A stretch of DNA of 64,000 nt from an uncultured Methanosarcinales archaeon (lineage in GTDB: Archaea > Nanobdellota > Nanobdellia > Woesearchaeales > GW2011-AR4): positions 3,554-67,553 of the forward strand of contig CAYVTQ010000001.1 in NCBI GenBank assembly GCA_964454865.1, written 5' to 3'. Each line of letters begins with the position of its first letter. Within the stretch, counting starts at the first letter, position 1. Shown here piece by piece: positions 8,580 to 52,312 of this stretch. Position numbers and translations under genes: made by a program. The notes under the pieces were generated by a model, which worked only from the letters and a program-made list of their open reading frames with translations, ran no database searches and was not told the DNA's origin.

Positions 8580-9155
8580 ATGATGGCAAAAATCAAAAAT
8601 TATGCCGGAAAATCGCACTCAAATTTTGAGTATAGGGAACAGAATCAGGAAGTGTATTACGCTGTTGGCGACATAGTCAAGATTAGCAAAAATGATATCC
8701 AATTATTCAGAAGAAAGACTATGCAAAACAAGCGTTTGAGGAGCAGATTGTGCACCCATAAAGACATACATGATAATCTCCACGAGATGTTCATCATGTA
8801 CTCCAAAGCTGCTTATATAAGGCCGCATAGGCATCCTAATAAAAGCGTATCCTATCACATAGTTGAAGGCTGCGTTGACGTCATTTTATTTAATGAGGCG
8901 GGAAATGTAAAAGAAATAATCCGGATGGGGGATTACTTAACCGGCCTTACTTTTTATTTCCGCATTTCCGACCCGCACTATTATATGCCAATACCAAGAT
9001 CCGATTTTTTGGTTTTTGAGGAGATTACAAATGGGCCCTTCAACGATTCCCATACCGTATTTGCTCCATGGGCCCCTGATGATGGCGATAACTTTGCTGT
9101 TAAAAAATTTATGAATGCATTAGAAGTCAAGATTAAAAGGTGGCCCTCGAATTAA
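8580..9155 (+). CDS. Cupin-fold protein, possibly WbuC-like (glycan-locus associated)
   Basis: PHRHP...SVSYHIVEG cupin metal-binding pattern; sits at the start of the sugar gene block. Confidence 0.4.
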   Translation: MMAKIKNYAGKSHSNFEYREQNQEVYYAVGDIVKISKNDIQLFRRKTMQNKRLRSRLCTHKDIHDNLHEMFIMYSKAAYIRPHRHPNKSVSYHIVEGCVDVILFNEAGNVKEIIRMGDYLTGLTFYFRISDPHYYMPIPRSDFLVFEEITNGPFNDSHTVFAPWAPDDGDNFAVKKFMNALEVKIKRWPSN

Positions 9156-9184
9156 GCTCTTTCAATAATCTTAGGAGTATAGGA

Positions 9185-10465
9185 ATGGAATCAAATTCTT
9201 TTCAGCGCAATCAATGCCGGGCGTGCAAAAGCAGAAATCTCGAATTAGTTTTGCCTCTTGCACCCATACCTATTGCTGATGCATATGTTTCCAAGGAATG
9301 CCTAAATGAAGCTCAAAATACTTACCCTTTGGAAGTTTTTTTGTGCAAAAATTGCGGCCTTGTGCAACTGCTTGAAACCATAGACCCGGAAATTTTATAC
9401 AGTAAATTCCTCTATGAAACCTCCACCTCACTAGGCCTTGCAGCCCATTTTCAAAAATATGCCCATGAAGTATTTAAAAAAATCGGGCCTCAAAAAGACA
9501 GCCTTATTGTAGATATAGGGAGCAATGACGGAACCCTGCTAAAAGCGTTTAAGGGCGAAGGGGCCACTAATGTCTTAGGAATAGACCCTGCTGAAGATAT
9601 CTCGAAAAAAGCGACAAAAAACGGAATAAAAACCGTGCCAAAATTTTTTAATATGGGGCTTGCCAATGAAATCACAAAAGAATACGGATTGGCTGGAATA
9701 GTCACTTCAAACAATACCCTTGCCAATATTGATAATCTGGCGGAATTTATTGGTGCAATCAAGCAGCTTATTGACGACCATGGGGTGTTCATCTTTGAAA
9801 CTGTCTATCTGGTTGACCTGTTGACGAATGCCGTTTTTGACAACATCTATCATGAGCATTTAAATTATTTCTCTGTCGGAGCCCTTAAAAAATTATTTCA
9901 GTTGCACAACTTGGAATTGGCGGATGTCGAGAGAATAGAAACCAAAGGAGGGTCTATACGCTGCTATGTCCAGCATAAACAGGGGCCCCTGAAGACTTCA
10001 TCTTCAGTAAATGAACTGATCAGCATGGAAAACGGCCTGAAAATAACTTCTGCGGAAATCTATACCAAATTATCTAAAAAACTAGAGCGCCATAAGCATG
10101 AATTGAGACACTTTCTCACTGATTTAAGGAGCAAGGGCAAGATAATCGCCGGCTACTGTGCGTCGCAAAGTGTTACGACTTTTCTTTATTATTTCGGCAT
10201 AGGGGAGTTTATAAAATTTATAGCGGACGATAACTCCATAAAGCACGGCACATTCAGCCCCGGCTTGCATATCCCGGTTTTGCCGCCGGATGAAATCTAC
10301 AGGCAAAAACCTGATTTTATAATAATATTGGCATGGAGATATTCCGACCCAATCATTAAAAAGCATCAGCTTTATCTTAATGGAAATGGGAGCTTTATTG
10401 TGCCATTTCCTGCTATAGAACTTTTTGATAAAAGTGGCATGAAAGAAGCGGCTAAACATCAATAA
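9185..10465 (+). CDS. NDP-hexose C-methyltransferase (TylCIII/EvaC-like, Zn-ribbon + SAM MT + C-terminal domain)
   Basis: N-terminal CRAC...CKNCG zinc ribbon, DIGSNDG SAM motif, long C-terminal domain; start placed at M16 to avoid overlap with upstream gene. Confidence 0.7.
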   Translation: MESNSFQRNQCRACKSRNLELVLPLAPIPIADAYVSKECLNEAQNTYPLEVFLCKNCGLVQLLETIDPEILYSKFLYETSTSLGLAAHFQKYAHEVFKKIGPQKDSLIVDIGSNDGTLLKAFKGEGATNVLGIDPAEDISKKATKNGIKTVPKFFNMGLANEITKEYGLAGIVTSNNTLANIDNLAEFIGAIKQLIDDHGVFIFETVYLVDLLTNAVFDNIYHEHLNYFSVGALKKLFQLHNLELADVERIETKGGSIRCYVQHKQGPLKTSSSVNELISMENGLKITSAEIYTKLSKKLERHKHELRHFLTDLRSKGKIIAGYCASQSVTTFLYYFGIGEFIKFIADDNSIKHGTFSPGLHIPVLPPDEIYRQKPDFIIILAWRYSDPIIKKHQLYLNGNGSFIVPFPAIELFDKSGMKEAAKHQ

Positions 10466-10475
10466 GGCATCTAAA

Positions 10476-11522
10476 ATGAGAGAACCGGACAATTTCAAAA
10501 ATATAATTTCAGCATTGTGCGATAAGGCAAATATCTCGGGAAACTACAAACTGGAGACTATCAAGGGCGGAAGGAACAACCAGACTTTCTGCGTTTCCTG
10601 CGATAATGGCACCAAGGCACTGCTTAAATACTATTTCAACAGCAGATTTGACAAAAGAAATCGCCTGGCATCCGAACACGCTTTTTTGAAATATCTGCGC
10701 GAATTGGGCTATACCCGCATCCCAAGAGTATTGGCAGTCGACACCGGCAACAATTTAGGGTTATATGAGTATATAGAAGGGAAAAAACTGAGCGCGTCAG
10801 AAATTGGCAAATCTGAAGTGGACTCTGCGATTGATTTCTTTTGCCGCATAAACAACGGAAAATATAGCCTCAAAAACAGCTTTTATCCGGCATCAGAAGC
10901 ATGTTTTAATCTCAATGACCATATAAGAACCGTTGAGACTAGGATTTCTAAACTATCTTCTATAGCCGGAACATCCGGAACAGACCGCATGGCAAGGGAA
11001 TTTATAAAAAATAAGCTAATTGTTTTGTGGGATGAGGTCAGGCAGCATGTATTAGAAAGCACTGCAAGCCTGAACATGGATTTGGATAAAGACATGCCTG
11101 CCAATGAAAAATGCCTGTCCCCTTCCGATTTCGGATTCCACAATGCCCTGAAAAATAGCTCCGGCGAAATTTATTTTTTCGATTTTGAATATGCCGGAAT
11201 AGACGATCCATCCAGAATGATGTGCGATTTCTTCTGCCAGCCCGAAATACCTGTGCCTTTCAAATTTTTCCACTATTTTATCCGGAAGATTTGCAGCGCC
11301 ATACCTTACACTAAGGAAGTAAGTGATAGGGCCGCCATATTATTTCCAGTTTATAAACTGAAATGGTGCTGCATACTGCTGAATGAATTTTTGCAAGATA
11401 GCATGGCGCGCAGGAAATTTGCCATTTCTGAAGGGTCTCCTGACCTCAAGCTGCAGCAGCTCAATAAAGCTCTGAAATACATGGAAAATTTTGAATTGAT
11501 CAAGAACGAGATTATGGCGTAG
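10476..11522 (+). CDS. Phosphotransferase-family kinase (APH/choline-kinase fold)
   Basis: Brenner-type SDFGFHNAL (DxxxxN) catalytic loop and DFEYAG Mg-binding motif. Confidence 0.6.
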   Translation: MREPDNFKNIISALCDKANISGNYKLETIKGGRNNQTFCVSCDNGTKALLKYYFNSRFDKRNRLASEHAFLKYLRELGYTRIPRVLAVDTGNNLGLYEYIEGKKLSASEIGKSEVDSAIDFFCRINNGKYSLKNSFYPASEACFNLNDHIRTVETRISKLSSIAGTSGTDRMAREFIKNKLIVLWDEVRQHVLESTASLNMDLDKDMPANEKCLSPSDFGFHNALKNSSGEIYFFDFEYAGIDDPSRMMCDFFCQPEIPVPFKFFHYFIRKICSAIPYTKEVSDRAAILFPVYKLKWCCILLNEFLQDSMARRKFAISEGSPDLKLQQLNKALKYMENFELIKNEIMA

Positions 11523-11526: not shown

Positions 11527-12192
11527 ATGATGGGCGGACAACTTAGCATTATATCAGCATTGCATAAAAAAACCCAGCGTGATTATATTAAAAGGGTAAA
11601 CAACTCCAAAATTGATTGCATGAAAGTCGCAAGAATGTACGGCAAGGACTATTGGGACGGCGACAGAAAGTTCGGCTATGGAGGGTACAAATATGATGGA
11701 AGATGGTCTGTTGTGGCAAAAGAGCTGATAAAGATTTATAATCTCCCTGCCACAGCAAAAATCCTGGATGTAGGCTGCGGAAAAGGATTTCTGCTTTATG
11801 AGTTCAAAAAATTGCTGCCAAAATGCACAATTGCCGGGTTTGACATATCGGAATATGCCGTCAAGAATGCAAAAGAAGAGGTCAAGAGCGATTTGCACGT
11901 TCATCCGGCCCAAGATTCATATGGCTATACCGACAAAGAATTTGACCTTGTAGTATCTCTTACGACTCTCCACAACCTGAAAATTTATGATTTGCATTCT
12001 GCTTTAAAGGAGATAGAAAGGGTAGGGAAGCATAAATATATTGTTGTTGAGAGCTATAGGGATGAAAAGGAGCTATTTAATCTCGAATGTTGGGCACTCA
12101 CTGCCCAGTCTTTTTTCAGCATCGAGGAATGGGAATGGATTTTTGGGCATTTTGGCTATTCCGGCGATTACGAATTTATATTCTTCGAATAG
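11527..12192 (+). CDS. Class I SAM-dependent methyltransferase
   Basis: ILDVGCGKGFLL motif I, acidic motif II (GFDIS). Confidence 0.65.
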   Translation: MMGGQLSIISALHKKTQRDYIKRVNNSKIDCMKVARMYGKDYWDGDRKFGYGGYKYDGRWSVVAKELIKIYNLPATAKILDVGCGKGFLLYEFKKLLPKCTIAGFDISEYAVKNAKEEVKSDLHVHPAQDSYGYTDKEFDLVVSLTTLHNLKIYDLHSALKEIERVGKHKYIVVESYRDEKELFNLECWALTAQSFFSIEEWEWIFGHFGYSGDYEFIFFE

Positions 12193-12255: not shown

Positions 12256-13302
12256 ATGATTCATAGCCTTAAAAATTATATCGAAGGCATAAAAACTGCC
12301 TACAATACCGGTCTAATTGAAAGCTTAATTAAGCAATTCAAAACGAAAAAGTTGCTGGTAATAGGCGACACAATAATTGATGAATACTACTTTACCTCAA
12401 TCAAGGGAACTGCCATCAAGGATCCCATAATCTCTGCGGAATATAAATACCATGAAACTTATCCCGGCGGAATATTGGCAATTTATAGCCATCTAAGCGA
12501 TTTCGCGGATAAGATTAATTTAGTCACATTATTGGGAGAATACAGCCCTAACCTGGACTTTATTAAAAAAAATATCCATAAAAATACCAATTTTAAACAT
12601 TTTATAAAGCCGGATTCCCACACAATTGTAAAACGAAGGTACATAGACGCTTACAGGAATAACAAGCTTTTCAAAATAGAGTATATGAATGACATGCCAA
12701 TATCCGAAAAGCTGTCCGGGGAAATTCTGGATTATTTAAGAAATGAAATTAAAAAATATGATATAGTGATTGCAGGGGATTTCGGCCACGGCTTTCTCAA
12801 TAAGCAGATAAGGGAATGTTTGGATGAAGAATCCCCTTACCTGTCAATAAATGTGCAGACAAACAGCGCCAACAGGGGATACAATTATGTAAATCTTTAC
12901 AAAAAACCTGATTTTTTCACTATCAATGAGGAGGAATTGAGGCTGACTATGATGAAGAGATTTGACGACACTAACGAGGTTATAAGGGAATTGCACAACA
13001 CTTTTAAGTATGGTAAATTTCTTGTCACACGCGGTAAAGAGGGATGCACTTTTTTTAATGATGGAAATATTGTCGAGGCTCCGGCATTGACAGAGAATGT
13101 AATTGACACTATTGGATCCGGAGATGCAGTATTTTCAATTGCAAGCTTATTTGTGCATAGCCATCCGGATGATAATCTGGTCCCGTTTATCGCAAACTGT
13201 GCGGGGGCTATAAAATCCAATTACATGGGCAACAAAGAAAGAATCACAGCAGAAAAATTATTAAGATTTATCAAAGAGCTGTATGAAAATGAACTGGAAT
13301 AG
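12256..13302 (+). CDS. PfkB-family sugar kinase, RfaE domain-I-like (heptose-7-phosphate kinase-like)
   Basis: LLVIGDTIIDEYY N-terminus and GSGDA anion hole; no fused adenylyltransferase domain. Confidence 0.6.
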   Translation: MIHSLKNYIEGIKTAYNTGLIESLIKQFKTKKLLVIGDTIIDEYYFTSIKGTAIKDPIISAEYKYHETYPGGILAIYSHLSDFADKINLVTLLGEYSPNLDFIKKNIHKNTNFKHFIKPDSHTIVKRRYIDAYRNNKLFKIEYMNDMPISEKLSGEILDYLRNEIKKYDIVIAGDFGHGFLNKQIRECLDEESPYLSINVQTNSANRGYNYVNLYKKPDFFTINEEELRLTMMKRFDDTNEVIRELHNTFKYGKFLVTRGKEGCTFFNDGNIVEAPALTENVIDTIGSGDAVFSIASLFVHSHPDDNLVPFIANCAGAIKSNYMGNKERITAEKLLRFIKELYENELE

Positions 13303-13846
13303 CTATAAAGAATCAATAATAGGCGCCTTGGAGATTTTCAGATTTGATGAAGGGATACTTGATTTGATCAGGAATTCCGTCAGCAAAAACCAGAGGATTT
13401 TCATAGGAGGCAATGGCGGGAGCGCTGCATTATCATTGCATTACGCAGCAGATTTATCAAAAGGGGCCAATTCAAACTGGGAAAAAAACGCCAAAAGGCT
13501 TAAGGCTGTTCCCCTAACCGGCAGTATAGGGTATATCACTGCCATATCCAACGATCTTAATTATGATGAGATATTCAAGCAGCAATTGATAAATCTGGCA
13601 TCCAAAAATGATATACTGATTCTGATTTCCTCTTCCGGGAACAGCCCAAATATAGTAAAAGCTGCGGAATATGCAAAAAAAGCCGGACTGATTGTTGTAG
13701 GCATCACAGGATTTGATGGCGGAAAGCTGAAGGGGCTATCTGACTACTCAGCTCATCTGGACTTTGATTCATATGAAGTTTGCGAAGATGTCCACGGAAT
13801 ATTCGGCCATTTCCTTTCGTGCTATTTGAGAAGCAGCCCGGACTAG
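13283..13846 (+). CDS. gmhA: Phosphoheptose isomerase (SIS domain, GmhA-like)
   Basis: GGNGGSAALSLHYAADL, ISSSGNSPN and GFDGGK motifs match GmhA. Confidence 0.75.
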   Translation: MKMNWNSYKESIIGALEIFRFDEGILDLIRNSVSKNQRIFIGGNGGSAALSLHYAADLSKGANSNWEKNAKRLKAVPLTGSIGYITAISNDLNYDEIFKQQLINLASKNDILILISSSGNSPNIVKAAEYAKKAGLIVVGITGFDGGKLKGLSDYSAHLDFDSYEVCEDVHGIFGHFLSCYLRSSPD

Positions 13847-14445
13847 AGATTTTCCATATCTTCTATTATCTGGTGCCAAGACCTGACTATTCTGAATTTG
13901 CCATTTTGTATTTCTCCGCTCGGATCAAACAGCATTCTTTTAACTGACGTGGGGAATTTACTGCCGTTTAAGAACTCCGGCAAGTCATCAATAAAATGCG
14001 TGCATTTTTGAATTTTAATCCTTTCAATTTTCTTATCGCCTGTCAGTTCAAAAAATATATTCTCTTCCTTTAATCCCATCACCCCATCATAAAATCTGTT
14101 TCTCTTCAACCACTGGCGGGCGTATTTGTGCAGATCATACTTTGGCCCCATATAAGGGTTTAATGTCCTATGGCTGATTATATATGCCTGCAATCCTTTC
14201 TCCCTGCAGATTTCGAAAAAATCCCTTACTCCCTCAAATGGCTTTGCATTGAATATTCCGGGGCCGTAAATATATCCCTGCAGCTCAATCCATTCATTTT
14301 CCCTGCACGCATCCCTAAGATAGTCTCTCACGCTGTTTTTAGACATAGATAAATTTTTTGGTATGATTCCCTTATCCAGAGCAGTGTTGTAGAACAGATT
14401 ATCATAACATACAATTGTATTGTCAAAGTCTACTCCTATAATCAT
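13843..14445 (-). CDS. HAD-superfamily hydrolase (phosphatase)
   Basis: N-terminal VDFDNT (DxD) HAD motif I. Confidence 0.55.
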   Translation of the reverse strand: MIIGVDFDNTIVCYDNLFYNTALDKGIIPKNLSMSKNSVRDYLRDACRENEWIELQGYIYGPGIFNAKPFEGVRDFFEICREKGLQAYIISHRTLNPYMGPKYDLHKYARQWLKRNRFYDGVMGLKEENIFFELTGDKKIERIKIQKCTHFIDDLPEFLNGSKFPTSVKRMLFDPSGEIQNGKFRIVRSWHQIIEDMENL

Positions 14446-14455: not shown

Positions 14456-15496
14456 TCAACCCATATCGATCAAGGGCCTGACAATCTTGCCAGATTCCAT
14501 ATCACCCAATGCATCATTAATTTCATTAAGCTTGTAGATATTTGACGTAAACGGCTCCAAGTTTATTTCGTGCGAGGCAATAAATTTCAGATACTTCAAA
14601 AAATCAGAGTCGGGATTGCTGTCCCCTCCCCATGTTCCCAGTATGCTCTTGCCCATATTAAACTCTTGGGGGTTAATATTCAAAATTTTGCCATGGGGGG
14701 CATTTCCAACTATCACAACCTTTCCCCCCTGTTTCCTTACGCTACTCACAGCCTGCAGCATTGTTTCAGGCATTCCGCATGATTCTATTGCAAAATCCAC
14801 CCCATTTTTGCAAACTTCTCTTATTTTATCTGGAGAAAGATCGTTGGAGTTATCTATCAGGTGGGTAGCCCCGTACTTCTCCGCTGTTTTTAATTTATTT
14901 TTATTAATATCGACTGCAAATATCGGGCGGCACTGGCTAATTCTTGCTCCTGCAATAGCAAATAGGCCTATGCCTCCTGTGCCAAACACGGCAATGCTCT
15001 CCCCTTTTTTCGGCTTTGCAACATTAAGGACAGCCCCCATTCCAGTAGGGAATGCACAGCCTAGTAACGCAATCTCTTTCATTGAAATATCCCAGCTCTC
15101 CGGCACGGCGGTCAAGCGATTTTCTGAAATAACGGACTGCCTTGAAAATGTGGTGATAGCTCCGGCATTTACTCTTTTCCCGCCTAATTCATAGGCTGTT
15201 CCCGGCACGTCCATTCCGGAGCCTTTTATCCACGACATTATGACCTTATCACCGGGCTTTACCTTCGTTACTTTAGGGCCGGCTTCCCTGACTATTCCCG
15301 AGCCTTCATGCCCCAGGCAATGCGGCAAATACTTGTCCTCTCCTCTGTGGCCATATTTTTCTAAAATCTGAGTATGGCAAACTCCGCTATATTTTATATC
15401 CACCAAAACCTGGCCATCCTTTAATTCAGGGATTTTCAGGCTTACCAATTTCAGCGGATTTCCCAATTCTTCCAGTATTGCAGCTTCAGTCAGCAT
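14456..15496 (-). CDS. Zinc-dependent alcohol dehydrogenase (MDR family)
   Basis: GVCHTQ and GHEGSG Zn-ADH motifs, GxGxxG Rossmann (GTGGIG). Confidence 0.8.
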   Translation of the reverse strand: MLTEAAILEELGNPLKLVSLKIPELKDGQVLVDIKYSGVCHTQILEKYGHRGEDKYLPHCLGHEGSGIVREAGPKVTKVKPGDKVIMSWIKGSGMDVPGTAYELGGKRVNAGAITTFSRQSVISENRLTAVPESWDISMKEIALLGCAFPTGMGAVLNVAKPKKGESIAVFGTGGIGLFAIAGARISQCRPIFAVDINKNKLKTAEKYGATHLIDNSNDLSPDKIREVCKNGVDFAIESCGMPETMLQAVSSVRKQGGKVVIVGNAPHGKILNINPQEFNMGKSILGTWGGDSNPDSDFLKYLKFIASHEINLEPFTSNIYKLNEINDALGDMESGKIVRPLIDMG

Positions 15497-16412
15497 TATT
15501 AAGATTCTCCATTATTTTTTTTGATATTTGATAAGGGGCAAGACCCATAAATTCCCTTGCGTAAGATTGGCTTCCAACCCTGTATAAGAACCTATCTTTT
15601 GTCCCGAATCTCAATAATCTGGATTTTTTGAAATTGTCACATGACCATTCAGCCACGCTTGATCCCAGCCCTCCAAGAAGGCTGTGCTCTTCAATTGTCG
15701 CAATCAGGCCGAATTCATTGAAAACATCGCTCAAAACTTCAGTATCCAAGGGCTTCAATGTAAACATATTTACCACTTGCGCAGATATGCCTTTTTCACC
15801 CAAAATTTTGGCAGCCTCAACAGAAGTGGACAGCATATTGCCTATACTTAAAATACAAACATCTTTTCCTTTTTGGATAATATTCCCCTTGCCGATTTTT
15901 GAATTTGGCACTTCCTTGTAAACAAGAGGGTCATTTTTTTTCCCTAGCCTCAGATAAACCGGCCCGTCATGATTTAGGGCCAGCCTTATAGCGGACCTTA
16001 CTTCATAGGCATCTCCGGGGCAAATGACAGACATATTAGGAAGCGCCCTCATTATTGCCAGATCCTCGCATGAATGGTGGGTTGCACCCAATGGGGCATA
16101 TTCAAACCCCGCCCCTACTGCCACTATAACCACTGGAAAATTGTTGTAGCATATATCCACCCTTATTTGTTCATAACATCTTGTCGTTATGAACGGCGCT
16201 ATGGTGTAACCAATAGGCCTCAGCCCGCAAGAGGCTATTCCGGCAGCCATTCCAATTAAATTAGCTTCTGCCACTCCGCAATTAAAAAACCTGTTGGGGA
16301 ACTTTTCTTTGAACTTATCAAAGAGCTTGTTGCCTATGTCGCCCGGCATCAAAACAACCTTGTCATTCTTTTCCGCTAATTTTGTCACTTCATCTGCAAA
16401 GGCATTCCTCAT
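15486..16412 (-). CDS. Transketolase, C-terminal (pyrimidine-binding) subunit of split enzyme
   Basis: 308 aa transketolase Pyr/C-terminal domains; 4-bp overlap with N-terminal subunit gene. Confidence 0.8.
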   Translation of the reverse strand: MRNAFADEVTKLAEKNDKVVLMPGDIGNKLFDKFKEKFPNRFFNCGVAEANLIGMAAGIASCGLRPIGYTIAPFITTRCYEQIRVDICYNNFPVVIVAVGAGFEYAPLGATHHSCEDLAIMRALPNMSVICPGDAYEVRSAIRLALNHDGPVYLRLGKKNDPLVYKEVPNSKIGKGNIIQKGKDVCILSIGNMLSTSVEAAKILGEKGISAQVVNMFTLKPLDTEVLSDVFNEFGLIATIEEHSLLGGLGSSVAEWSCDNFKKSRLLRFGTKDRFLYRVGSQSYAREFMGLAPYQISKKIMENLNNAD

Positions 16413-34642: not shown

Positions 34643-34650
34643 TTTTAAAA
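34643..34650 (+). promoter_or_regulatory. TATA-like box (TTTTTAAAA) upstream of aglB
   Basis: 23-30 nt upstream of ATG at 34673, directly after the repeat. Confidence 0.3.
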
Positions 34651-34672
34651 CAGGTTAATTACCCCAGAACTG

Positions 34673-43428: not shown

Positions 43429-43951
43429 GGACGGGGTAATAAACCATGTTTGCTATCATGATGATAAGGGAATCTATAGCGCTACGAGTATGCAGGAGTT
43501 CAAAGTCCTGCCTAATGTAAAAAAAAACATCCGATCCTTAAAAGGCAAAGGATACAAAATAGTTGTAGTTTCGAATCAGCCTGGGATTGCTTTTGGATAT
43601 CTAAGCGAGCAAGAAGTCAGGAAAATAGATGAATTTATGAAAAATGAAATCGGCGTCGATGCTGTATATAACTGCCCGCATCACCCCAAATTCAAAAAAT
43701 GCAGCTGCAGGAAGCCAAAAGACGGCATGCTAAAGCAGGCTGCCAAAGATCTTAATATAGACTTGAGCAGGTCATTTATTGTGGGGGACAACCTGGCAGA
43801 TATAGCAGCAGGCAAAAAATGCAGGGAGACTTTTTTGGTTGCAAGAAAGATAACTGTAGATTTGCTAAACCTTATTGAAGACGAGGGAGTTAAGCCTACA
43901 CACATAGTAAAATCCTTGGAAGAGGCTGCAAGAAGAATATTATTGGGTTAG
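43397..43951 (+). CDS. gmhB: D,D-heptose 1,7-bisphosphate phosphatase
   Basis: FLDRDGVIN motif I, SNQ motif, CPHHP...CSCRKP zinc site typical of GmhB; 32-bp overlap with hddC. Confidence 0.85.
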   Translation: MDGNKAVFLDRDGVINHVCYHDDKGIYSATSMQEFKVLPNVKKNIRSLKGKGYKIVVVSNQPGIAFGYLSEQEVRKIDEFMKNEIGVDAVYNCPHHPKFKKCSCRKPKDGMLKQAAKDLNIDLSRSFIVGDNLADIAAGKKCRETFLVARKITVDLLNLIEDEGVKPTHIVKSLEEAARRILLG

Positions 43952-44035
43952 GGCTATAACAAATTTACACTATTTAAATCTTTCTACGAAACATTTATAT
44001 AAAGATTCTAAACACATAACCACGGGGAAAATAAG

Positions 44036-45040: not shown

Positions 45041-45051
45041 TTGGAGGTTTT

Positions 45052-45657
45052 ATGGGGCATATTGAGTATATAACAACTTACTTTAAGGATATCAGGGAAA
45101 TTACCGAGCATATAAACAAAGAAGAGATCTCAAAAGCGATAGACATATTATTTGAAGCGTGGAAGAACGATCAAAATGTGTATTTTATAGGGTGCGGCGG
45201 AAGCGCAGGAACTGCATCGCATTTCGCAGCTGACCTTTCAAAGACCACTATTGTAAAGCCGAAAAAGAGGTTTAAGGCCCACTCTCTTGTTGACAATCCG
45301 TCCCTGATAACTGCATGGATAAATGATGATGGGTGGGAGTCTGTATTCAAGGAGCAGATTGAGAATTTCATAATGCCCGGCGATGTTGTTGTGGGGTTGA
45401 GCGTGCATGGCGGAAAAGGGAAGGGAAATTCCGGCGCATGGTCGCAAAATTTGACGCTGGCGATGGAGTATGCCAAGTACAAGGGAGGAAAATGCATCGG
45501 ATTGGCGGGCTTTGACGGAGGGGCATTCAAAGAGATATGCGATGCGTGCATAATTGTCCCAAAAGACTCGACGCCTTTGGTGGAGGGGTTTCATTGCGAC
45601 ATACAGCATTTAATAATCTTCAGGCTTAAAGAAATGATAAGCAGTTTTACCGATTAA
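45052..45657 (+). CDS. gmhA: Phosphoheptose isomerase (sedoheptulose-7-P isomerase)
   Basis: GCGGSAGTASHFAADL SIS motif, GFDGG. Confidence 0.85.
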   Translation: MGHIEYITTYFKDIREITEHINKEEISKAIDILFEAWKNDQNVYFIGCGGSAGTASHFAADLSKTTIVKPKKRFKAHSLVDNPSLITAWINDDGWESVFKEQIENFIMPGDVVVGLSVHGGKGKGNSGAWSQNLTLAMEYAKYKGGKCIGLAGFDGGAFKEICDACIIVPKDSTPLVEGFHCDIQHLIIFRLKEMISSFTD

Positions 45658-45680
45658 AACTGGGCAAAAGGTGCGTCAAA

Positions 45681-46355
45681 ATGGCAATTTTTTTGGATAC
45701 GGGAAATGTTGAAGTTGTTAAGAAATATATGAGCATGGGCATAATAAGGGGAGTTACTACTAATCCCACCATAATGCTGAAGTCTGGAGTGAGCGGCGGC
45801 TTAAATGGCATTAAAAAAATGGCTGTAGAGATTGCAAATCTTATTTCACCTCTGCCCTTGTCTGTCGAAGTTACAAATAATGAATACGAAGGCATGATTA
45901 AGCAGGCCATTGAGTTTTCCAAGTGGGCGAAGAATATCAACGTCAAAATAACCATTCACGGGCCAAATGGGGAGCTTCACAATTTAAGGGCTGTGCATGA
46001 GTTGGAGACAAAACATGACATAAGGGTGAATGTCACTGCAATGATGAGCGCCCAGCAATGCTTTTTGGCGGCTATGGCAGGCGCAACCTATGTGTCCCTG
46101 TTCTGCGGCAGAGTCAACAATATGGGCTATAATTCAATCGAAGAGATAAAAAAGCTGCGCAAGCTTCTGGACGATTTCCAATTGAGGTCAAAAATAATCT
46201 GCGGTTCTACAAGGGAAGTCCTGAACATCGTGGAATGGCTGGGGGCAGGAGCCCATATAGTGACTGCTGTTCCGGACTTGATTGAAGGGATGATTGTGCA
46301 CCCTTATAGCAAAGAAACAGTAAGGCAGTTTCTTGAGGATGCTGTTAAAATATAA
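45681..46355 (+). CDS. tal: Transaldolase (short TalC/FSA-type)
   Basis: GVTTNPT motif and catalytic Lys region; 224 aa. Confidence 0.8.
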   Translation: MAIFLDTGNVEVVKKYMSMGIIRGVTTNPTIMLKSGVSGGLNGIKKMAVEIANLISPLPLSVEVTNNEYEGMIKQAIEFSKWAKNINVKITIHGPNGELHNLRAVHELETKHDIRVNVTAMMSAQQCFLAAMAGATYVSLFCGRVNNMGYNSIEEIKKLRKLLDDFQLRSKIICGSTREVLNIVEWLGAGAHIVTAVPDLIEGMIVHPYSKETVRQFLEDAVKI

Positions 46356-46358: not shown

Positions 46359-47084
46359 CTACTTTTTCTCACCATAAATCAATATGCTGGATCCCTGCCA
46401 CCTGAAAATGGGGATTTTTTCAAACAACTCGCTCAGAAAAACTGCAATTCCAATCAAAGGTCTCGGAGTAAACGCAAATGCAAAGCAAAATGGCCTTATC
46501 TTTATCCATTTTAATCTTTTACTTTCAAAAAAACATTTATATGCCGAAGGGGAATAAGAGTTTTCATTTGCCTTCCTGTTCCTCGGGGTCAATTCCAGTA
46601 ATTTTCTTGGCAGGCTTAAGCCATTCGCTTCGCATAAGAGAAAGTACTTTCCCGTCACTCTAAGCATTTCCTGCGCCATTTTTCCCGGATTATCAACATG
46701 GTGCATAGTATTGAAGCAGCAAACCATATCAAATGAATCCTCCTTAAAATCGAGAGAGGTGGCATCCATCTGCATGGCTTCAACGCCCTTGGCTTTGATT
46801 TTTTTGACGCCTTCCGGGGATAATTCAGTAGCAACATACCTCTTTGGATTTAATGCTTTTATTATCATGCTCGAGCTTACCCCATCGCCTGCTCCGATTT
46901 CAAGTATAGACATTTTTTTTAGGTTTTTGCCTTTAAGAAAATCTATTAGATAGTTCACTTCTTTTGGAACTCTGTAATACATTCCTATCCTGCCTTCCCA
47001 TTTTTCCCTGAAAGGAATGTCCGAGCTAAATAGCTCATCATAGTACTCTTTCATCACCCTCTTATTTTTTCCCTTCATATTCAT
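46359..47084 (-). CDS. Class I SAM-dependent methyltransferase
   Basis: ILEIGAGDG motif I. Confidence 0.7.
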   Translation of the reverse strand: MNMKGKNKRVMKEYYDELFSSDIPFREKWEGRIGMYYRVPKEVNYLIDFLKGKNLKKMSILEIGAGDGVSSSMIIKALNPKRYVATELSPEGVKKIKAKGVEAMQMDATSLDFKEDSFDMVCCFNTMHHVDNPGKMAQEMLRVTGKYFLLCEANGLSLPRKLLELTPRNRKANENSYSPSAYKCFFESKRLKWIKIRPFCFAFAFTPRPLIGIAVFLSELFEKIPIFRWQGSSILIYGEKK

Positions 47085-47110: not shown

Positions 47111-48052
47111 TCAACTCATCTCTTCCAATAGAGCTTTTACAGATTTTACAATAGCTTCACGAGAGCTATTTTTTGCCTTCCATCCAAGCTTATGCATTTT
47201 TGCAAGATCAAACCTTACAACAGGAACATCCCCTTTCCATCCCCTTTTCCCACCAGAATGCTCAAACCTGACATTTTTCAGGCTCATCTCATTGGCAACA
47301 ATTTTTGCAATGTCATTAACAGTTATATAGTCCTCCGTTGCTATATTAAAAATGTTTACTGTTTCATTGGAGTTATTGATAGCAAAAAATATCCCTTCTA
47401 TTACATCACTTATATGGATATAAGACTTGCTCTGGTTTCCGTCCCCAAGAATCTCCAGCCTCTTGGGGCTTGTTCCCAGCTTCCTGATAAAATCATACGC
47501 CACCCCATGAGTCTGCCTCTGCCCCACCACATTTGCAAAGCGGAATATCCAGGACTGCATGTCAAACATATGGCAAAATGCGCTTATTATTCCCTCACTG
47601 CCAAGCTTGCTTGCCCCATACATTGAAATTGGCAGCAATGGCCCAAAATCTTCAGGAGTCTCCACCAATCCAGCATCCCCGTAAATTCCGCTCCCGGAGG
47701 AAAAAACGATCTTTTTTATGCCGTTTATCCTCATTGATTCAACCGCATTATAAGTGGATATTATGCCAAGGCGCAAATCCAAGTCCGTTTCCACCATGCT
47801 CTTTGCTATATCTGCATTGGCTGCCAAGTGGAAAACCATATCATGATTCTTCATGGATTTGACAAGGCTCTCCTTGTCAAGCAAGTCTCCATTTATGCAC
47901 CTGAATAGAGGATTTTTAGAGTGATGGCTTATAAAATCTTCCCTGCCGCTGCTGAAATTATCATAAACAGTAACGCTGTGCTTTTGACTTATCAGAAAAT
48001 CAGCCAGATTGCTGCCGATAAATCCCGCGCCGCCCGTTATGAAGTATTTCAT
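47111..48052 (-). CDS. NAD-dependent epimerase/dehydratase (UDP-sugar 4-epimerase-like)
   Basis: ITGGAGFIGSNL Rossmann, YGASK catalytic motif. Confidence 0.8.
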   Translation of the reverse strand: MKYFITGGAGFIGSNLADFLISQKHSVTVYDNFSSGREDFISHHSKNPLFRCINGDLLDKESLVKSMKNHDMVFHLAANADIAKSMVETDLDLRLGIISTYNAVESMRINGIKKIVFSSGSGIYGDAGLVETPEDFGPLLPISMYGASKLGSEGIISAFCHMFDMQSWIFRFANVVGQRQTHGVAYDFIRKLGTSPKRLEILGDGNQSKSYIHISDVIEGIFFAINNSNETVNIFNIATEDYITVNDIAKIVANEMSLKNVRFEHSGGKRGWKGDVPVVRFDLAKMHKLGWKAKNSSREAIVKSVKALLEEMS

Positions 48053-48053
48053 T

Positions 48054-48776
48054 TTAAATTGCCCTTAGCTTCAAGCTGAAAATCTCAAAAAAAGCCCTGC
48101 ACAGCTTGAAGGGTATTTTTTCTATGGGGAGAGCGACACTTTTTTTGTAAGTATGGTTAACCGGCACCTGGCCATACCTGTATCCCATCTTTTTTGCATA
48201 TATGAACGTTTCAGCATTATAAGCCACAGTCAAACTGCCTGTCAGCGGTATAATTTTTTTTACCGCTTCATTCTTAATTATCCTAAAACCGCAATTAGAG
48301 TCCCTCAGCCATACATTAAACAGCACTCCCATCAGCATATTATTTATTCTTGAAACAAAAACCCTGTAGTAAGGCTTCCTGTTGATTTTGTAGCCCACCA
48401 CTAAGTCTAGACTGTTATTTATAATCTTGTCCCATAATAACCAGAAATCTGACGGCTTATGCTCCCCGTCAGAATCAGTAAAAAATATATATTCTCCTTT
48501 TGCCTGCATATATATTTCCTTAACGGCTTGTATGTACCCCCTCCTATGCTCGCAAAGGTTTAAATCGAGATCGTACTTCTTTTGTATGCTCCTGAGAATC
48601 TCCCTGGTATTGTCCCTGCTGCCGTCTTCCGCAATGATAACTTCAGCCTCACCCAGCCCCAACTTCCTGAATTTTTGGATTATTTTATTATTAATCTCAC
48701 TAATTAGTTCTTCAATCTTTTCGTTCTCATAAACAGGCATGAGTATTGACAATTTTATCTTTTTTTTAATCGCCAT
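48054..48776 (-). CDS. Glycosyltransferase family 2
   Basis: LSILMPVYNE start, DSD motif. Confidence 0.75.
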   Translation of the reverse strand: MAIKKKIKLSILMPVYENEKIEELISEINNKIIQKFRKLGLGEAEVIIAEDGSRDNTREILRSIQKKYDLDLNLCEHRRGYIQAVKEIYMQAKGEYIFFTDSDGEHKPSDFWLLWDKIINNSLDLVVGYKINRKPYYRVFVSRINNMLMGVLFNVWLRDSNCGFRIIKNEAVKKIIPLTGSLTVAYNAETFIYAKKMGYRYGQVPVNHTYKKSVALPIEKIPFKLCRAFFEIFSLKLRAI

Positions 48777-48907: not shown

Positions 48908-50221
48908 CTATTCCAATTTAACACCATGCCCCTTTATTTTCTTTGCAAGCTCAAATGCGTGCCTTATCACAGCATCGGTATTGAGATATTCAAATTCCGC
49001 AAATCTTCCGCACAGGTGTATTCCGATTGAATCAAAATATTCCCTTATCATCCTGAGCTTGTCAAGATAGCCAATAGTATTGACGACATACCCGTATCTC
49101 GCATTGACCAAATCAGTTTCACAGACCTCCTTTGAATCAATAAATCCTTCCTGCTCCATTGTATCGATTACATGGTGTATCAATTCTTCATTAGGCATTC
49201 CGGATATCCTGTCTCCGGGATAATAAGTAAATTCCGCAGTTATTGTGTGCTTGCCCGGGGGAGCATGATCGGCATTCAAGAATGTATAAAAGCATAGCCT
49301 ATGATAAAGCGTATTTTCAGATGGAATGTATATGCCAAATTTATCCGTAAATTTTATCTTGTTTAGCCCTATCATTACTACAATAACTCCATTATACCTC
49401 AAAGAATGAATTGCATCGGCAATCTTCTGAGGCGCGCCGGCAAGGCAGCCCAGCAATTCCGGCAGGGGCATTGTGGAAATAATTTGGTCGTACTTCTTCT
49501 CGCTTTTGCCGTCTGAAACTACCCACCCGTCCCTGCTTTTTATGATTTTTTTGACCTTGTAATTCAGAACGACATTTTTTACATCTTTCCCCAGCGCCAA
49601 GACAAGGCTCTCAATGCCTCCTCTTTCAGGATACCAGAAATTAAGCTGATGGGTATATCCTTCAGTGGATATTCCAATTGCAGATTTTATTATATCCTCG
49701 GCAGGAGGCTTTGGCACCCTGCCTTCAACCCAGTCCAGCCCAAGCTCCGAAGGATCCATCTTCCATATCTTTTTGTTGTAGGGTATGAGGTATTTTTCCG
49801 CTATTCCTTTTCCGAATGTGTAGTATATCCACTCTTTAAAATTAGCTCTTGGAGGAGGAGAATCATTATTAAAGAAATGCAAGAGGCATTCAAAAAGATC
49901 TCCTTTGTCAAGCTCATTAAGCCCATTCTCAAAAGGATATTTTATGAAATTTTTTTTGAACCATATCTTGTTGTTTCTATAATGGCTTTTTATATTACCC
50001 TGCTGTTTTTTTAGCATGAATCTCAGTATATCCTTGTCTTTGGAGAAGATTATATGGCCGCCCATATCATAGCTGAAGCCGTTCTTTTTCTTTGTTTTGC
50101 AATGCCCCCCTATCCTGCTGAATTCTTCAAGAATTTCATACTCGGAGTCTCCCAGAAAATATGCTGCAGATATGCCTGCCAGCCCCCCTCCAAGTATCCC
50201 TATCTTCATGGATTTTAGCAA
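48908..50221 (-). CDS. FAD-dependent oxidoreductase, UDP-galactopyranose-mutase/amine-oxidase-like
   Basis: GILGGGLAGISAA dinucleotide-binding motif, YNKKIW segment reminiscent of UGM; 437 aa. Confidence 0.5.
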   Translation of the reverse strand: MLKSMKIGILGGGLAGISAAYFLGDSEYEILEEFSRIGGHCKTKKKNGFSYDMGGHIIFSKDKDILRFMLKKQQGNIKSHYRNNKIWFKKNFIKYPFENGLNELDKGDLFECLLHFFNNDSPPPRANFKEWIYYTFGKGIAEKYLIPYNKKIWKMDPSELGLDWVEGRVPKPPAEDIIKSAIGISTEGYTHQLNFWYPERGGIESLVLALGKDVKNVVLNYKVKKIIKSRDGWVVSDGKSEKKYDQIISTMPLPELLGCLAGAPQKIADAIHSLRYNGVIVVMIGLNKIKFTDKFGIYIPSENTLYHRLCFYTFLNADHAPPGKHTITAEFTYYPGDRISGMPNEELIHHVIDTMEQEGFIDSKEVCETDLVNARYGYVVNTIGYLDKLRMIREYFDSIGIHLCGRFAEFEYLNTDAVIRHAFELAKKIKGHGVKLE

Positions 50222-50296
50222 CTGCAGTTAATTTAAAAATGTTTCCCGGCAATCGGCAGATTAAGATACCGATTTTTTAGAATATAGCGCGGATTG

Positions 50297-51187
50297 CTAA
50301 TGGTTTAATTTCCCATATATTGTTATTCCTTTCTTCAAAAGATTCTCCATGACCCTGACAAGATCCCTTGCTTTCAATGCCCTCAACTCAGTATCTCCGA
50401 ACTGGAATATTCTCATTGAACCGTCTTCTAAAAGATACTTTTCAATGATATTGTTATTTCTTATCTTATGCAGGTGAGGCAGATGATTCCTAAAATAGAT
50501 TATTTTTTTGCCGCCTTTTTCATCAGTCACAACAGCCTTCATCTTTTTTGTAAATACTCCAATAGGAAACTTGCATTTGTCTTCTACAATATGTATTGAG
50601 GAGTTAGCAAGCTGGTCAACGCCTATCAGGAATATTTTTGCATCCAGCTTGTATAGCTTTCCAAACGGCCCTTTCATCGAATAGGGGTTGTCACATTCCT
50701 CATGCCCCTTCACAAGCCATTCCGCCTTGTTTCCATAAGCTGCTACTGAATGCATAGGCGACAAGCTTCTCTTCACGCCTTCCCTCAATCTGAATGTTTC
50801 AGGGATTGTGCCAGTATAAGCAGGGGTGCAATTCACATCAAAGATGTATGTTCCTCTTTTTGCATCATAAGCCGGTGCTGAGAAAGCAGGCATAACAAGA
50901 ATCCCTTCTTTCCCCAGAGATTCCAGGAGAGCGTCAATCAGGGAACTTGCGCCGCCATTAATAAATCCTATCCTCCCGAGGGATGAATGCACAATGACAG
51001 TGTCTCCCCTGACAAGGCCTGCATTGGAAAGGCATTTTTTCAAGTCTTCTTTGGATATCTCTTTCTTCAGAAGATTTTTTGCCAGCCTTAACTTCTTGAC
51101 AAGGCCATAAATGAGCTTCTGCGCAGCAAACGGGATTAACGGCTTGATTCTGCGCTTCCACTCTGCTTCGCTTACTTTAGATTTCAT
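50297..51187 (-). CDS. AAC(3)-family (Antibiotic_NAT-type) N-acetyltransferase
   Basis: VRGDTVIVHSSL...GILVMPAFS pattern of aminoglycoside 3-N-acetyltransferase fold. Confidence 0.6.
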   Translation of the reverse strand: MKSKVSEAEWKRRIKPLIPFAAQKLIYGLVKKLRLAKNLLKKEISKEDLKKCLSNAGLVRGDTVIVHSSLGRIGFINGGASSLIDALLESLGKEGILVMPAFSAPAYDAKRGTYIFDVNCTPAYTGTIPETFRLREGVKRSLSPMHSVAAYGNKAEWLVKGHEECDNPYSMKGPFGKLYKLDAKIFLIGVDQLANSSIHIVEDKCKFPIGVFTKKMKAVVTDEKGGKKIIYFRNHLPHLHKIRNNNIIEKYLLEDGSMRIFQFGDTELRALKARDLVRVMENLLKKGITIYGKLNH

Positions 51188-51202
51188 TTTGCTCGATATT
51201 CC

Positions 51203-52312
51203 TCATTTATCAAAATTTTTCAAGATTATGCTTACAATTCTTTCGGCAGCCCTGCCGTCCCATAGCTCAGGAGCAGATTTGCCGATCTTTATTTTCCCGT
51301 CTATTATCTCCCCTGACTTTTTCAGTACATTTGTATTATCAGTGCTTACTAACAAATTGGTCCCCTTGCCTGATGTAATCGGCCTTTCTGTGCTGTCCCT
51401 CAAGGTTATGCACGGAACGCCCAAAATAGTCGTTTCTTCCTGCAAGCCGCCGGAATCTGTCAGTGTAAATTTGCTGTTGCTCACAAGGCACATAAAATCA
51501 AGATATCCCAGCGGTTCTGCCAGAACAACATTTTTCATTTTGCCCAGCCTTCCGATGAGTTTAAAGGCATGAAGATTCTTTTTTGTCCTTGGATGAGCAG
51601 GGAATACAATCTTAATTCTTTCCTGCAGACTTTCCAGCAGCGAGATGATCCTCTCCAAACTCTCCTTGCTGTCTACATTGCTGGGCCTGTGCAAAGTAAC
51701 GGCGCAATACTCATTTTTTTTTAAATTCAGCTTTTTGAGTATTGCCGATTCCTTAGATTTTTCCCTGTGGCTCAGCAAAGTGTCTACCATAACATTGCCA
51801 ACAAAAAATATTTTGCCCTTATTGATTCCTTCGTTAAGCAGGTTGGAGTTTGCGCTTTCTTCCGTTGTAAAAAGAAAATTACTTATTCTGTCAGTCAGCA
51901 TTCTGTTGATCTCTTCAGGCATTTTCCAGTCAAAGGATCTCAGCCCGGCTTCGACATGGGCAACTTTTATCCCAAGCTGCCTGGCGACAAATGCCCCTGC
52001 AAACGTGGAATTGACATCCCCCACTACGACAACTAAATCCGGGCTTATCCTGCTCATCACCTCTTCCAATTTTATGATTGCATTACCTACTTGCTCGCCA
52101 TACGTGCCGGAGCCGACTGAAAGGTTTATATCTGGCATCGGAAGCCCAAGATCATCAAAAAATGAGCCGCTCATTTCTTTGTCATAATGCTGCCCTGTAT
52201 GGACTAAAGTATGGTTAATCCCCTTATGCTTGTTGAATTCCGCTATCAACGGGGCTATTTTGATGAAGTTCGGCCTCGTTCCGACCACGCTTAAAATCCT
52301 GACCATGGCCAA
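51203..52312 (-). CDS. wecB: UDP-N-acetylglucosamine 2-epimerase (non-hydrolysing, WecB family)
   Basis: VGTRPNFIKIAPL and HTGQHYD motifs. Confidence 0.85.
   Translation of the reverse strand: MAMVRILSVVGTRPNFIKIAPLIAEFNKHKGINHTLVHTGQHYDKEMSGSFFDDLGLPMPDINLSVGSGTYGEQVGNAIIKLEEVMSRISPDLVVVVGDVNSTFAGAFVARQLGIKVAHVEAGLRSFDWKMPEEINRMLTDRISNFLFTTEESANSNLLNEGINKGKIFFVGNVMVDTLLSHREKSKESAILKKLNLKKNEYCAVTLHRPSNVDSKESLERIISLLESLQERIKIVFPAHPRTKKNLHAFKLIGRLGKMKNVVLAEPLGYLDFMCLVSNSKFTLTDSGGLQEETTILGVPCITLRDSTERPITSGKGTNLLVSTDNTNVLKKSGEIIDGKIKIGKSAPELWDGRAAERIVSIILKNFDK

Follow-up and report, generated by a model that had tools for sequence, protein, structure and literature searches.

A large and variable aglB-centred gene cluster, probably for N-glycosylation and surface glycans, in a Woesearchaeota archaeon

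The 64,000-nucleotide stretch of contig CAYVTQ010000001.1 analyzed here (hereafter the window, with positions counted from its first letter) carries between positions 8,580 and 52,312 a dense cluster of sugar-related genes grouped around aglB, which encodes the archaeal oligosaccharyltransferase. The cluster spans ~44 kb and ~44 genes, namely 41 large open reading frames (ORFs) and at least two small ones, arranged in about a dozen transcription units with only ~12 intergenic gaps of 60 nt or more. Profile searches against Pfam and NCBIfam returned matches consistent with sugar or glycan metabolism for 40 of the 41 large ORFs; throughout, cutoffs are the curated NCBIfam or Pfam gathering scores, and matches to solved enzymes are from the PDB. 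A first-pass annotation had proposed a run of sugar genes over this very interval, and every class that it named was recovered in place by the profile searches, save that one presumed GNAT acetyltransferase belongs to an FkbH-domain protein (TIGR01686), of which it is the C-terminal part. Judged from gene content and from comparison with relatives, the region is likely an aglB-centred N-glycosylation and surface-glycan cluster of a Woesearchaeota (DPANN) archaeon, and a native but hypervariable locus. Its central part contains the following genes:

29241–29984, plus strand: S-adenosylmethionine (SAM) methyltransferase b (Methyltransf_11)
29981–30778, minus strand: family 2 glycosyltransferase (GT2) a (PF00535)
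30781–31542, minus strand: short RmlD-like reductase (RmlD_sub_bind, 99.7 bits)
31560–32777, minus strand: nucleoside diphosphate (NDP)-sugar 6-dehydrogenase, WecC/UDP-ManNAc dehydrogenase-like (TIGR03026, 258.6 bits against a cutoff of 189.8)
32882–34348, plus strand: PMT_2 GT-C glycosyltransferase, AglS/ArnT-like, directly upstream of aglB (PF13231, 60.1 bits; ~11 predicted transmembrane (TM) helices)
34673–37705, plus strand: AglB oligosaccharyltransferase, 1010 aa (STT3, PF02516, 147.6 bits against a gathering score of 24.5)
37725–38303, minus strand: methyltransferase c, 192 aa, convergent partner of AglB (Methyltransf_23)
38465–40716, plus strand: family 4 glycosyltransferase (GT4; 38465–39658; PF00534, 164 bits) and CE4-like deacetylase (39607–40716; PF01522, 25.8 bits)
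40692–41351, minus strand: SAM methyltransferase d (Methyltransf_11)
41348–42238, minus strand: AglJ-like GT2, candidate dolichyl-phosphate (Dol-P)-sugar synthase (TIGR04182 AglJ, 152.7 bits against a cutoff of 325; TM helices at 237–293)

The assignment of AglB is sustained by its motifs as well as by its profile score. The protein has at least 10 predicted TM helices; its WWDFG, at residue 665, aligns with the WWDYG of human STT3A, and its acidic motifs DIDPYY (residues 240–245) and D362-S-D364 correspond to FDPYF and D-N-E, respectively. D683-G-T-T aligns to the DNNT of STT3A, a motif shaping the Ser/Thr pocket, though the archaeal DK/MI pattern was not made out in this alignment. A likely TATA-like box of aglB, TTTTTAAAA, lies at ~34644–34652, just outside a copy of a short repeat (family C, below).

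Relatives of the locus were sought with AglB as the query, and the compared loci are designated by L-numbers. Among 156 relatives, 80 Woesearchaeota AglB loci were kept (L001–L080), and all were either named Woesearchaeota or Nanoarchaeota or labelled ‘uncultured Methanosarcinales’, a label that we take as a mislabelling; the AglB relatives place the locus in the Woesearchaeota. AglB shares at most ~50% identity with that of any species-representative relative. Around AglB in the 80 listed loci, homologues of the other genes of our cluster are scarce (median of 2 within 10 kb), and only two elements recur: the AglJ-like GT2, which adjoins AglB in 69 of the 80, and a trio of SIS, PfkB, and HAD (haloacid dehalogenase family) genes, in ~20. 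The closest AglB sequences in a large protein collection are 65% and 60% identical, and in their loci only AglB and the convergent methyltransferase (72–73% identical) are orthologous. Beyond these two genes, the loci carry WbpB/D/E-like genes, a GT4, and an NDP-sugar dehydrogenase that is not orthologous to ours (25%), with RtcB coming next; in one of them, a Wzx-like flippase, a PMT_2 protein, and a PIG-L protein are present in addition. Methyltransferase c, found at 72–75% identity beside AglB in L003, L011, L015, L088, and L089, is thus more conserved than AglB itself (49–65%). The GT4 and CE4-like pair is conserved in L017 (47% and 50%), and FkbH- and AAC(3)-like genes also stand beside AglB in L001. 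The variable gene order implied when the region was called an island is therefore borne out: the relatives lack the gene order seen here, and the closest loci retain only AglB and its adjoining methyltransferase.

To the left of this central part, the genes are:

8580–9155, plus strand: WbuC-family cupin, first gene of the cluster (NCBIfam TIGR04366, 113 bits against a cutoff of 42; no Pfam match)
9140–10465, plus strand: NDP-sugar 3-C-methyltransferase 1, C-MT1 (Pfam Methyltransf_13/23/14; PDB 4rv9 MtmC, E 5e-78)
10476–11522, plus strand: APH/choline-kinase-like kinase, possibly a sugar or head-group kinase (PF01636, E 3.8e-9; no PDB or NCBIfam match)
11527–12192, plus strand: SAM methyltransferase a (Pfam Methyltransf_31/11/25)
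12256–13302, plus strand: HldA-like PfkB kinase, candidate heptose-7-P kinase (rfaE_dom_I, 122.7 bits over its full length, below cutoff)
13283–13846, plus strand: GmhA-like sedoheptulose-7-P isomerase 1 (SIS_2; TIGR00441 gmhA, 110.7 bits, below cutoff)
13843–14445, minus strand: 200-aa protein with HAD motif I (VDFDNT) read in its translation (no Pfam or NCBIfam profile match)
14456–15496, minus strand: Zn-dependent alcohol/sugar dehydrogenase (ADH_N, ADH_zinc_N)
15486–17284, minus strand: split transketolase, C half at 15486–16412 and N half at 16409–17284 (Transket_pyr, Transketolase_C, Transketolase_N; 193 and 273 bits against NF004559)
17292–19560, minus strand: two DegT/PseC-like sugar aminotransferases, 17292–18419 and 18412–19560 (PF01041, E 5e-113 and 2e-103)
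19660–21656, minus strand: NDP-hexose 4,6-dehydratase-like short-chain dehydrogenase/reductase (SDR; 19660–20661; TIGR01181, 212.8 bits, below cutoff) and second SDR (20658–21656; Epimerase PF01370)
21810–22013, minus strand: DUF5989 small membrane protein (PF19451, 73.6 bits)
22041–23801, minus strand: O-carbamoyltransferase of the NodU/NovN/TobZ type (Carbam_trans_N and _C; PDB 9s2t, E 7.5e-104)
23901–24143, minus strand: 80-aa ORF upstream of the carbamoyltransferase (one predicted TM helix; no family match)
24742–25803, plus strand: FkbH-domain protein, HAD-IIIC plus GNAT-like (TIGR01686, 207.7 bits against a cutoff of 146.7)
25790–26968, plus strand: membrane-anchored SGNH/AlgX-like esterase or O-acyltransferase (Lipase_GDSL_2, ALGX; N-terminal TM helix)
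26961–28307, minus strand: NDP-sugar C-methyltransferase 2, C-MT2 (Methyltransf_13/23/14)
28198–29178, minus strand: SDR epimerase/dehydratase 3 (PF01370, E 5.5e-48)

The two DegT genes are paralogues (~69% DNA identity), and C-MT1, besides its match to the 3-C-methyltransferase of mycarose, also matches TcaB9, another 3-C-methyltransferase, and KijD1 in the PDB. The carbamoyltransferase, bracketed by the DUF5989 protein and the single-TM ORF, matches NovN, GdmN, and TobZ with E-values from 1e-104 to 1e-87. The maximal ORF of C-MT2 overlaps the next gene by 110 nt, and its true start probably lies downstream of the TTG. Matches of the ORF at 13843–14445 to PPR-repeat structures in the PDB were discarded as spurious.

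The left third of the cluster (8.6–24 kb) contains APH-like, TobZ-like, DegT, Zn-dehydrogenase, and transketolase genes which, together with an AAC(3)-like gene, form a combination of families like that of aminoglycoside clusters, and the match of the carbamoyltransferase to TobZ is strong (E 3e-87). That this part is an aminoglycoside- or aminocyclitol-like biosynthetic cluster with self-resistance genes seems to us highly improbable nonetheless: a cyclase resembling DHQ synthase (DOIS or EEVS) was not found by profile searches of the window, 26 kb separate the AAC(3)-like gene from this part and place it in an operon with WecB, UGM-like, and GT2 genes, FkbH- and AAC(3)-like genes co-occur with AglB in L001, and C-MT1 matches 3-C-methyltransferases that act on NDP-sugars.

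The right-hand part of the surface-glycan cluster starts with a heptose operon:

42643–46355, plus strand: NTP-transferase (HddC-like), GmhB-like HAD, HddA-like GHMP kinase, GmhA-like SIS 2, and transaldolase/FSA (Pfam, NCBIfam)
46359–47084, minus strand: SAM methyltransferase e (Methyltransf_11/25)
47111–48776, minus strand: SDR epimerase 4 (47111–48052; PF01370) and GT2 c (48054–48776; PF00535)
48908–50221, minus strand: UDP-galactopyranose mutase (UGM)-like flavoenzyme (Amino_oxidase; PDB 4dsg UGM, E 1.3e-27 over residues 4–330)
50297–51187, minus strand: AAC(3)-family N-acetyltransferase (PF02522, 173.8 bits)
51203–52312, minus strand: WecB UDP-GlcNAc 2-epimerase, last gene of the cluster (TIGR00236, 357.5 bits against a cutoff of 210)

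All four families of GDP-D-glycero-alpha-D-manno-heptose synthesis (GmhA, HddA, GmhB, and HddC) thus occur within 42643–45657, where a heptose enzyme is the best or near-best match of each gene at scores below the equivalog cutoffs: 172 bits for HddA, 137.6 for GmhB, 90 for gmhA, and 88 for HddC, with a HAD-IIIA match above its own cutoff. The transaldolase of the operon scores 153 bits against FSA/TalC, likewise sub-equivalog. With the PfkB kinase, whose best match is the heptose-7-P kinase domain of HldE, and the second GmhA-like gene at 12256–13846, the cluster has two modules leading from sedoheptulose to heptose. In ~20 of the 80 listed loci (L038, L010, L005, and L002, for example), AglB and an AglJ-like GT2 are followed by the series SIS (GmhA), PfkB, HAD (GmhB), and GT2; the PfkB kinase is monofunctional in most of these loci and HldE-like in L076 (464 aa, with HxGH). 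The recurrence of this series beside AglB suggests that heptose is a common component of AglB-dependent glycans in the Woesearchaeota.

This recurrence bears on whether the whole region serves a single purpose. It is conceivable, if rather doubtful in our opinion, that only a core of ~29.9–42.2 kb serves N-glycosylation and that the outer modules (8.6–29 and 42.6–52.3 kb) build another glycoconjugate, O-linked via PMT_2, glycolipid, or capsule-like. The AglB clusters of the nearest relatives are indeed smaller (~9–19 kb, ending at RtcB), the modules are separate transcription units on alternating strands with repeat-filled gaps between them, and PMT_2 enzymes are known from GT39 and GT83 to be able to serve non-N-linked pathways. 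By contrast, no second polymerase, ligase, or export system (Wzy, Wzx, ABC transporter) and no second oligosaccharyltransferase was found in the window, and that heptose genes adjoin AglB in many Woesearchaeota speaks for heptose entering the AglB pathway.

The census behind the island proposal holds for the whole cluster. Pfam recovered AglB, the GT39-like gene (the PMT_2 GT-C enzyme), three GT2 and one GT4, and Pfam and PDB searches together recovered five SDR-type enzymes, two DegT aminotransferases, two C-methyltransferases, five small SAM methyltransferases, and the carbamoyltransferase. WecB and the WecC-like dehydrogenase were both confirmed above cutoff (TIGR00236 and TIGR03026), the dehydrogenase scoring 166 bits, below cutoff, against the archaeal UDP-ManNAc dehydrogenase model. 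The UGM-like flavoenzyme matches UDP-galactopyranose mutases of the eukaryotic type, and the AAC(3)-like, SGNH, and CE4-like calls survived as well, the last of them weakly (25.8 bits against a cutoff of 23.1). To this inventory we add the split transketolase, the Zn-dependent dehydrogenase, the transaldolase, the PfkB, GHMP, and APH-like kinases, the two GmhA-like SIS proteins, the GmhB-like HAD protein, the NTP-transferase, the WbuC cupin (8580–9155), and the DUF5989 protein (21810–22013). Matches above curated cutoffs include WecB, the NDP-sugar dehydrogenase, FkbH, WbuC, and HAD-IIIA.

Housekeeping genes border the cluster on both sides, as first proposed: Taw1 and dUTPase on the left and RibK, a RibC-like protein, TrmI, and Top6A/B on the right. 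The left block (MoxR, VWA, metallophosphoesterase, Taw1, dUTPase, and a radical SAM (rSAM) protein) and the right block (hyp235, NMD3-like, DUF460, and RibK onward) are each conserved in relatives, but the junctions that join them to the cluster, MoxR with its first gene and its last gene with hyp235, were not found in relatives L083, L085, and L087. There, the rSAM end leads through Tmk, SAM_HAT, a response regulator, and TFIIS, ~3.5 kb of unrelated genes, to hyp235, and beyond MoxR lie PAP2, NTP-transferase, CCA enzyme, and GyrA genes. The block from rSAM to MoxR (1961–8527) is inverted relative to L085, L087, and L083, implying that a rearrangement accompanies the position of the cluster. 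Judging from these loci, both junctions are lineage-specific. A metagenome scan with the DUF460 flank protein as query found no relatives, exact look-ups of AglB, the carbamoyltransferase, and the VWA protein had no counterpart on record, and a 1.8-kb Logan contig was identical in sequence.

Several details of the flanks deserve mention in their own right. The maximal MoxR ORF (7415–8527, minus strand, GTG at 8527) overruns one of the hairpin elements listed below; translation probably begins at the ATG at 8440 or 8422, since relatives align only up to ~8416. On the other side, the ORF at 53297–53698 (minus strand) shares sequence with a repeat copy and is in all likelihood spurious; the NMD3-like ORF at 53504–53923 (plus strand, 139 aa), which is called and conserved in relatives, is the actual gene. 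An 85-aa PQ-loop/MtN3 (semiSWEET-like) membrane protein, conserved in L084, is encoded at 56189–56446 (minus strand) between the RibC-like gene and TrmI. The 783-aa protein at 57781–60132 (minus strand), with an N-terminal TM helix, no Pfam match, and 78% conservation in L084, was considered as an S-layer glycoprotein target; having only one N-x-S/T sequon, it is not an obvious N-glycoprotein.

In base composition, the cluster does not stand apart from these flanks. GC content (0.422 in the cluster and 0.415 in the flanks) and GC at third codon positions (GC3; 0.463 and 0.469) do not differ significantly, and the tetranucleotide profile is uniform across both. A partition by codon usage is strongest close to the proposed borders (second among 60 circular shifts), but each flank is as distinct from the other as it is from the cluster; the contrast had looked significant in a naive permutation and became inconclusive with the circular-shift control and the flank-versus-flank comparison. 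The term island thus holds for gene content, variable among relatives, and not for composition. Variable content without compositional anomaly indicates a native hypervariable locus with a small conserved core rather than demonstrably foreign DNA.

The gaps between operons contain repeats, which had been described as miniature inverted-repeat transposable element (MITE)-like and as marking module junctions:

8443–8479, plus strand: element B copy 1, left border, in the divergent MoxR/WbuC gap (pattern and covariance-model matches)
24511–24547, plus strand: element B copy 2 (pattern and covariance-model matches)
34371–34634, no strand assigned: MITE family C between PMT_2 and AglB, with a nested 54-nt element B (core 34543–34579, plus strand; alignment with three B-free copies)
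42306–42515, no strand assigned: composite element A, made of a short B-type hairpin pair, two more hairpins, and an inverted B (core 42467–42503, minus strand)
52454–52490, minus strand: element B copy 5, right border, upstream of WecB, inverted relative to copy 1 (pattern and covariance-model matches)

That description was correct and far above chance: the 37-nt core of element B occurs 5 times in the window and in none of 100 shuffles. Its copies lie at three internal junctions and, inverted with respect to each other, at the two borders. Element B is ~54 nt long and folds into two adjacent hairpins with a conserved 18-nt loop. Compensatory changes (G-C to U-A in stem 1 of two copies, and a stem 2 whose sequence differs in every copy) accompany a pairing of 89.6% of cells, against 32–50% in slid controls. 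Family C, found at 34371–34634 and ~55090–55278 and in L085 at 5269–5375 and 9192–9357, has 14-bp terminal inverted repeats (TIRs; GGCTTCATCCAAAA/TTTTGGATGAAGCC), 9-bp target-site duplications (TSDs; GATAATTTT at 55.1 kb, GCGTCATTC/GCATCATTC at 34.4 kb), and multiple short non-coding copies, as is expected of MITEs, and it fills nearly the whole gap between PMT_2 and aglB. Its copy at 34.4 kb carries a 53–54-nt insertion, element B, which the three other copies lack, and such filled and empty sites imply that element B is or was mobile. Element B itself has neither TIR nor TSD and is reminiscent of repetitive extragenic palindrome (REP) or IS200/IS605-type single-stranded DNA elements. Element A, a series of four hairpins with B-type hairpin pairs, inverted to each other, at its ends, has copies at 42306–42515, 57526–57712, and 53380–53471 (inverted and partial) that are 89–93% identical, and short-read contigs from this organism (L082) stop within it. 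Since the repeats also occur outside the cluster and short-read contigs break there, we consider them dispersed mobile repeats occupying the only intergenic space left free, not boundaries specific to the cluster.

The search of the whole window against Rfam gave no credible family, so that the hairpin elements are not a known RNA. A covariance model (R1) found it only in this lineage, in the metagenome contig L081 (1882–1915, minus strand), and at the contig end of a relative (L083, 1–40), without copies in the 80 other Woesearchaeota loci or in most loci of relatives, and the idea of a widespread cis-regulatory RNA was dropped on these grounds. The hairpin core had no match in a viral collection and a single one in a metagenome collection, upstream of a stomatin-like gene on the 2-kb contig L081 (Ga0209541_10169267), apparently a chimera of ~600 nt of AT-rich Woesearchaeota-like sequence joined to unrelated GC-rich sequence. 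Small ORFs within the repeats have inconsistent frames and strands and were rejected as genes.

Unique junctions, a copy of element B at each border in opposite orientation (8443, plus; 52454, minus), the codon-usage peak near the borders, and the many families best known from bacteria (FkbH, AAC(3), WbuC, DUF5989, TcaB9-like) might together evoke a mobile island recently acquired and inserted as a unit between MoxR and hyp235, perhaps mobilized through its inverted terminal hairpins. We find such an origin unlikely: the GC, GC3, and tetranucleotide profiles match those of the flanks; in codon usage the two flanks are as far from each other as each is from the cluster; the window contains no tRNA gene; neither an integrase nor a transposase came up when the main ORFs were searched with profiles, the borders holding only the dispersed hairpin repeats; the same repeat families lie outside the cluster (53.4, 55.1, and 57.6 kb) and in relatives; and the core of AglB and its methyltransferase is shared vertically with relatives.

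For a native aglB-centred cluster, the gene families present suggest a pathway whose substrates and order of steps we infer. The split transketolase and the transaldolase could supply sedoheptulose-7-P, and two GmhA-like isomerases would feed two routes of heptose activation, one through the HddA-like GHMP kinase, GmhB, and the HddC-like nucleotidyltransferase (GDP-alpha-heptose type), the other through the HldA-like PfkB kinase (beta type). WecB and the NDP-sugar dehydrogenase would yield UDP-ManNAc(A), and the UGM-like flavoenzyme a furanose donor. Branched 6-deoxy amino sugars might be produced by the 4,6-dehydratase, the two DegT aminotransferases, the two MtmC/TcaB9-type 3-C-methyltransferases, WbuC, SDR reductases, and AAC(3)/GNAT-type acetyltransferases, while the five SAM methyltransferases, the O-carbamoyltransferase (with DUF5989), and the FkbH, SGNH, and CE4 enzymes would tailor the glycan. 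Assembly would proceed on dolichol phosphate by the AglJ-like membrane GT2 and three soluble enzymes, two more GT2 and one GT4; a flippase encoded elsewhere would then flip the glycan for its transfer by AglB to asparagine. Like AglS in Haloferax, the PMT_2 enzyme may act outside the cell and add a sugar carried on Dol-P. Around the conserved core of AglB and methyltransferase, the cargo turns over fast between relatives, which would generate lineage-specific surface types. The putative chemistry (heptose, galactofuranose, ManNAcA, 3-C-methyl amino sugars, methyl and carbamoyl groups) and the unusually elaborate glycan announced by the first-pass annotation are inferences from enzyme families.

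Several observations weigh against this reconstruction. Nearly all enzyme matches score below the equivalog cutoffs, so the sugar identities are not established, and the transketolase and transaldolase could equally be resident housekeeping genes of the pentose-phosphate pathway. The cluster lacks an AglH-type GlcNAc-1-P transferase and, for the beta-heptose route, a nucleotidyltransferase of the HldC type. Profile searches of the window found no flippase (Wzx/AglR; Polysacc_synt or MATE-like); L089 has one. Among the 14 proteins tested, only AglB and PMT_2 have many predicted TM helices, and GC and GC3 do not differ from those of the flanks. A single glycan shared by all modules, and its linkage to asparagine, are likewise putative.

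Very tentatively, and with more doubt than conviction, one may go further and imagine an N-glycan with a bacterial O-antigen-like chemistry so far unreported for archaeal proteins (3-C-methyl-branched 6-deoxy amino sugar, O-carbamoylation, two anomer-specific heptose routes, and furanose) that, in an episymbiotic DPANN archaeon, would determine lineage by lineage the attachment to hosts or the evasion of viruses, its cargo being reshuffled at operon junctions colonized by an undescribed archaeal REP-like mobile element of 54 nt and two hairpins.

The genomes of DPANN archaea are very small, and these archaea are believed to live on hosts to which they attach. Records of related Woesearchaeota include a 0.77-Mb chromosome and a 0.70-Mb contig and, by extrapolation, the 44-kb cluster would amount to several per cent of a genome of this kind. 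If a lineage with so small a genome devotes ~44 kb to a surface glycan, and its nearest relatives have swapped nearly all of the cargo, diversifying selection on the glycan coat is probably strong, exerted for example by host recognition or viruses. The cluster offers a concrete list of candidate genes for heptose and branched amino sugars in archaeal N-glycans, and heptose genes recur beside AglB across the Woesearchaeota. Current concepts are unchanged, since haloarchaea and methanogens are already known for variable aglB clusters; what is notable is the size in a DPANN genome and the predicted sugar chemistry, the kind of locus being already known.

Heptose has been reported in an N-glycan of Thermoplasma. 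aglB-proximal or aglB-anchored clusters, with strong variation from strain to strain, have been documented in Haloferax and Halobacterium (PMC5867893; PMC11407970). As in the agl clusters of Euryarchaeota, such as aglB–aglJ of Haloferax volcanii, aglB is accompanied here by an AglJ-like glycosyltransferase and other glycosyltransferases, an NDP-sugar dehydrogenase (AglM-like), a nucleotidyltransferase (AglF-like), methyltransferases (AglP-like), and a PMT-type GT-C enzyme (AglS-like), and gene content varies strongly between related lineages. Unlike them, this cluster reaches ~44 kb and ~44 genes in a DPANN lineage whose genome is probably below 1 Mb, and it lacks a flippase; heptose, 3-C-methyl sugar, carbamoyl, FkbH, and UGM modules set it apart from the characterized agl pathways, and the uniform composition from the low-GC loci of Haloferax. 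Among its repeats, family C resembles MITEs in its TIRs, TSD, and multiple non-coding copies, and element B resembles REP/BIME sequences as a hairpin pair occurring alone or as inverted pairs (element A); in contrast to both, no cognate transposase (DDE or Y1/RAYT) was found in the window, and element B lacks TIR and TSD and turned up in this lineage and in two other contigs only. In bacteria, the GmhA–HddA–GmhB–HddC pathway to GDP-D-glycero-alpha-D-manno-heptose is encoded in O-antigen or S-layer glycan clusters, with Aneurinibacillus thermoaerophilus and Campylobacter jejuni as examples. The same four families share an operon here (42643–45657), together with WbuC, DegT, 4,6-dehydratase, C-methyltransferase, and WecB/WecC-type genes in the cluster. 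The differences from the bacterial clusters lie in the sub-equivalog scores, the transaldolase within the operon, the second, PfkB-type route, and the archaeal transfer machinery, AglB and presumably dolichol, to which these sugars would be delivered.

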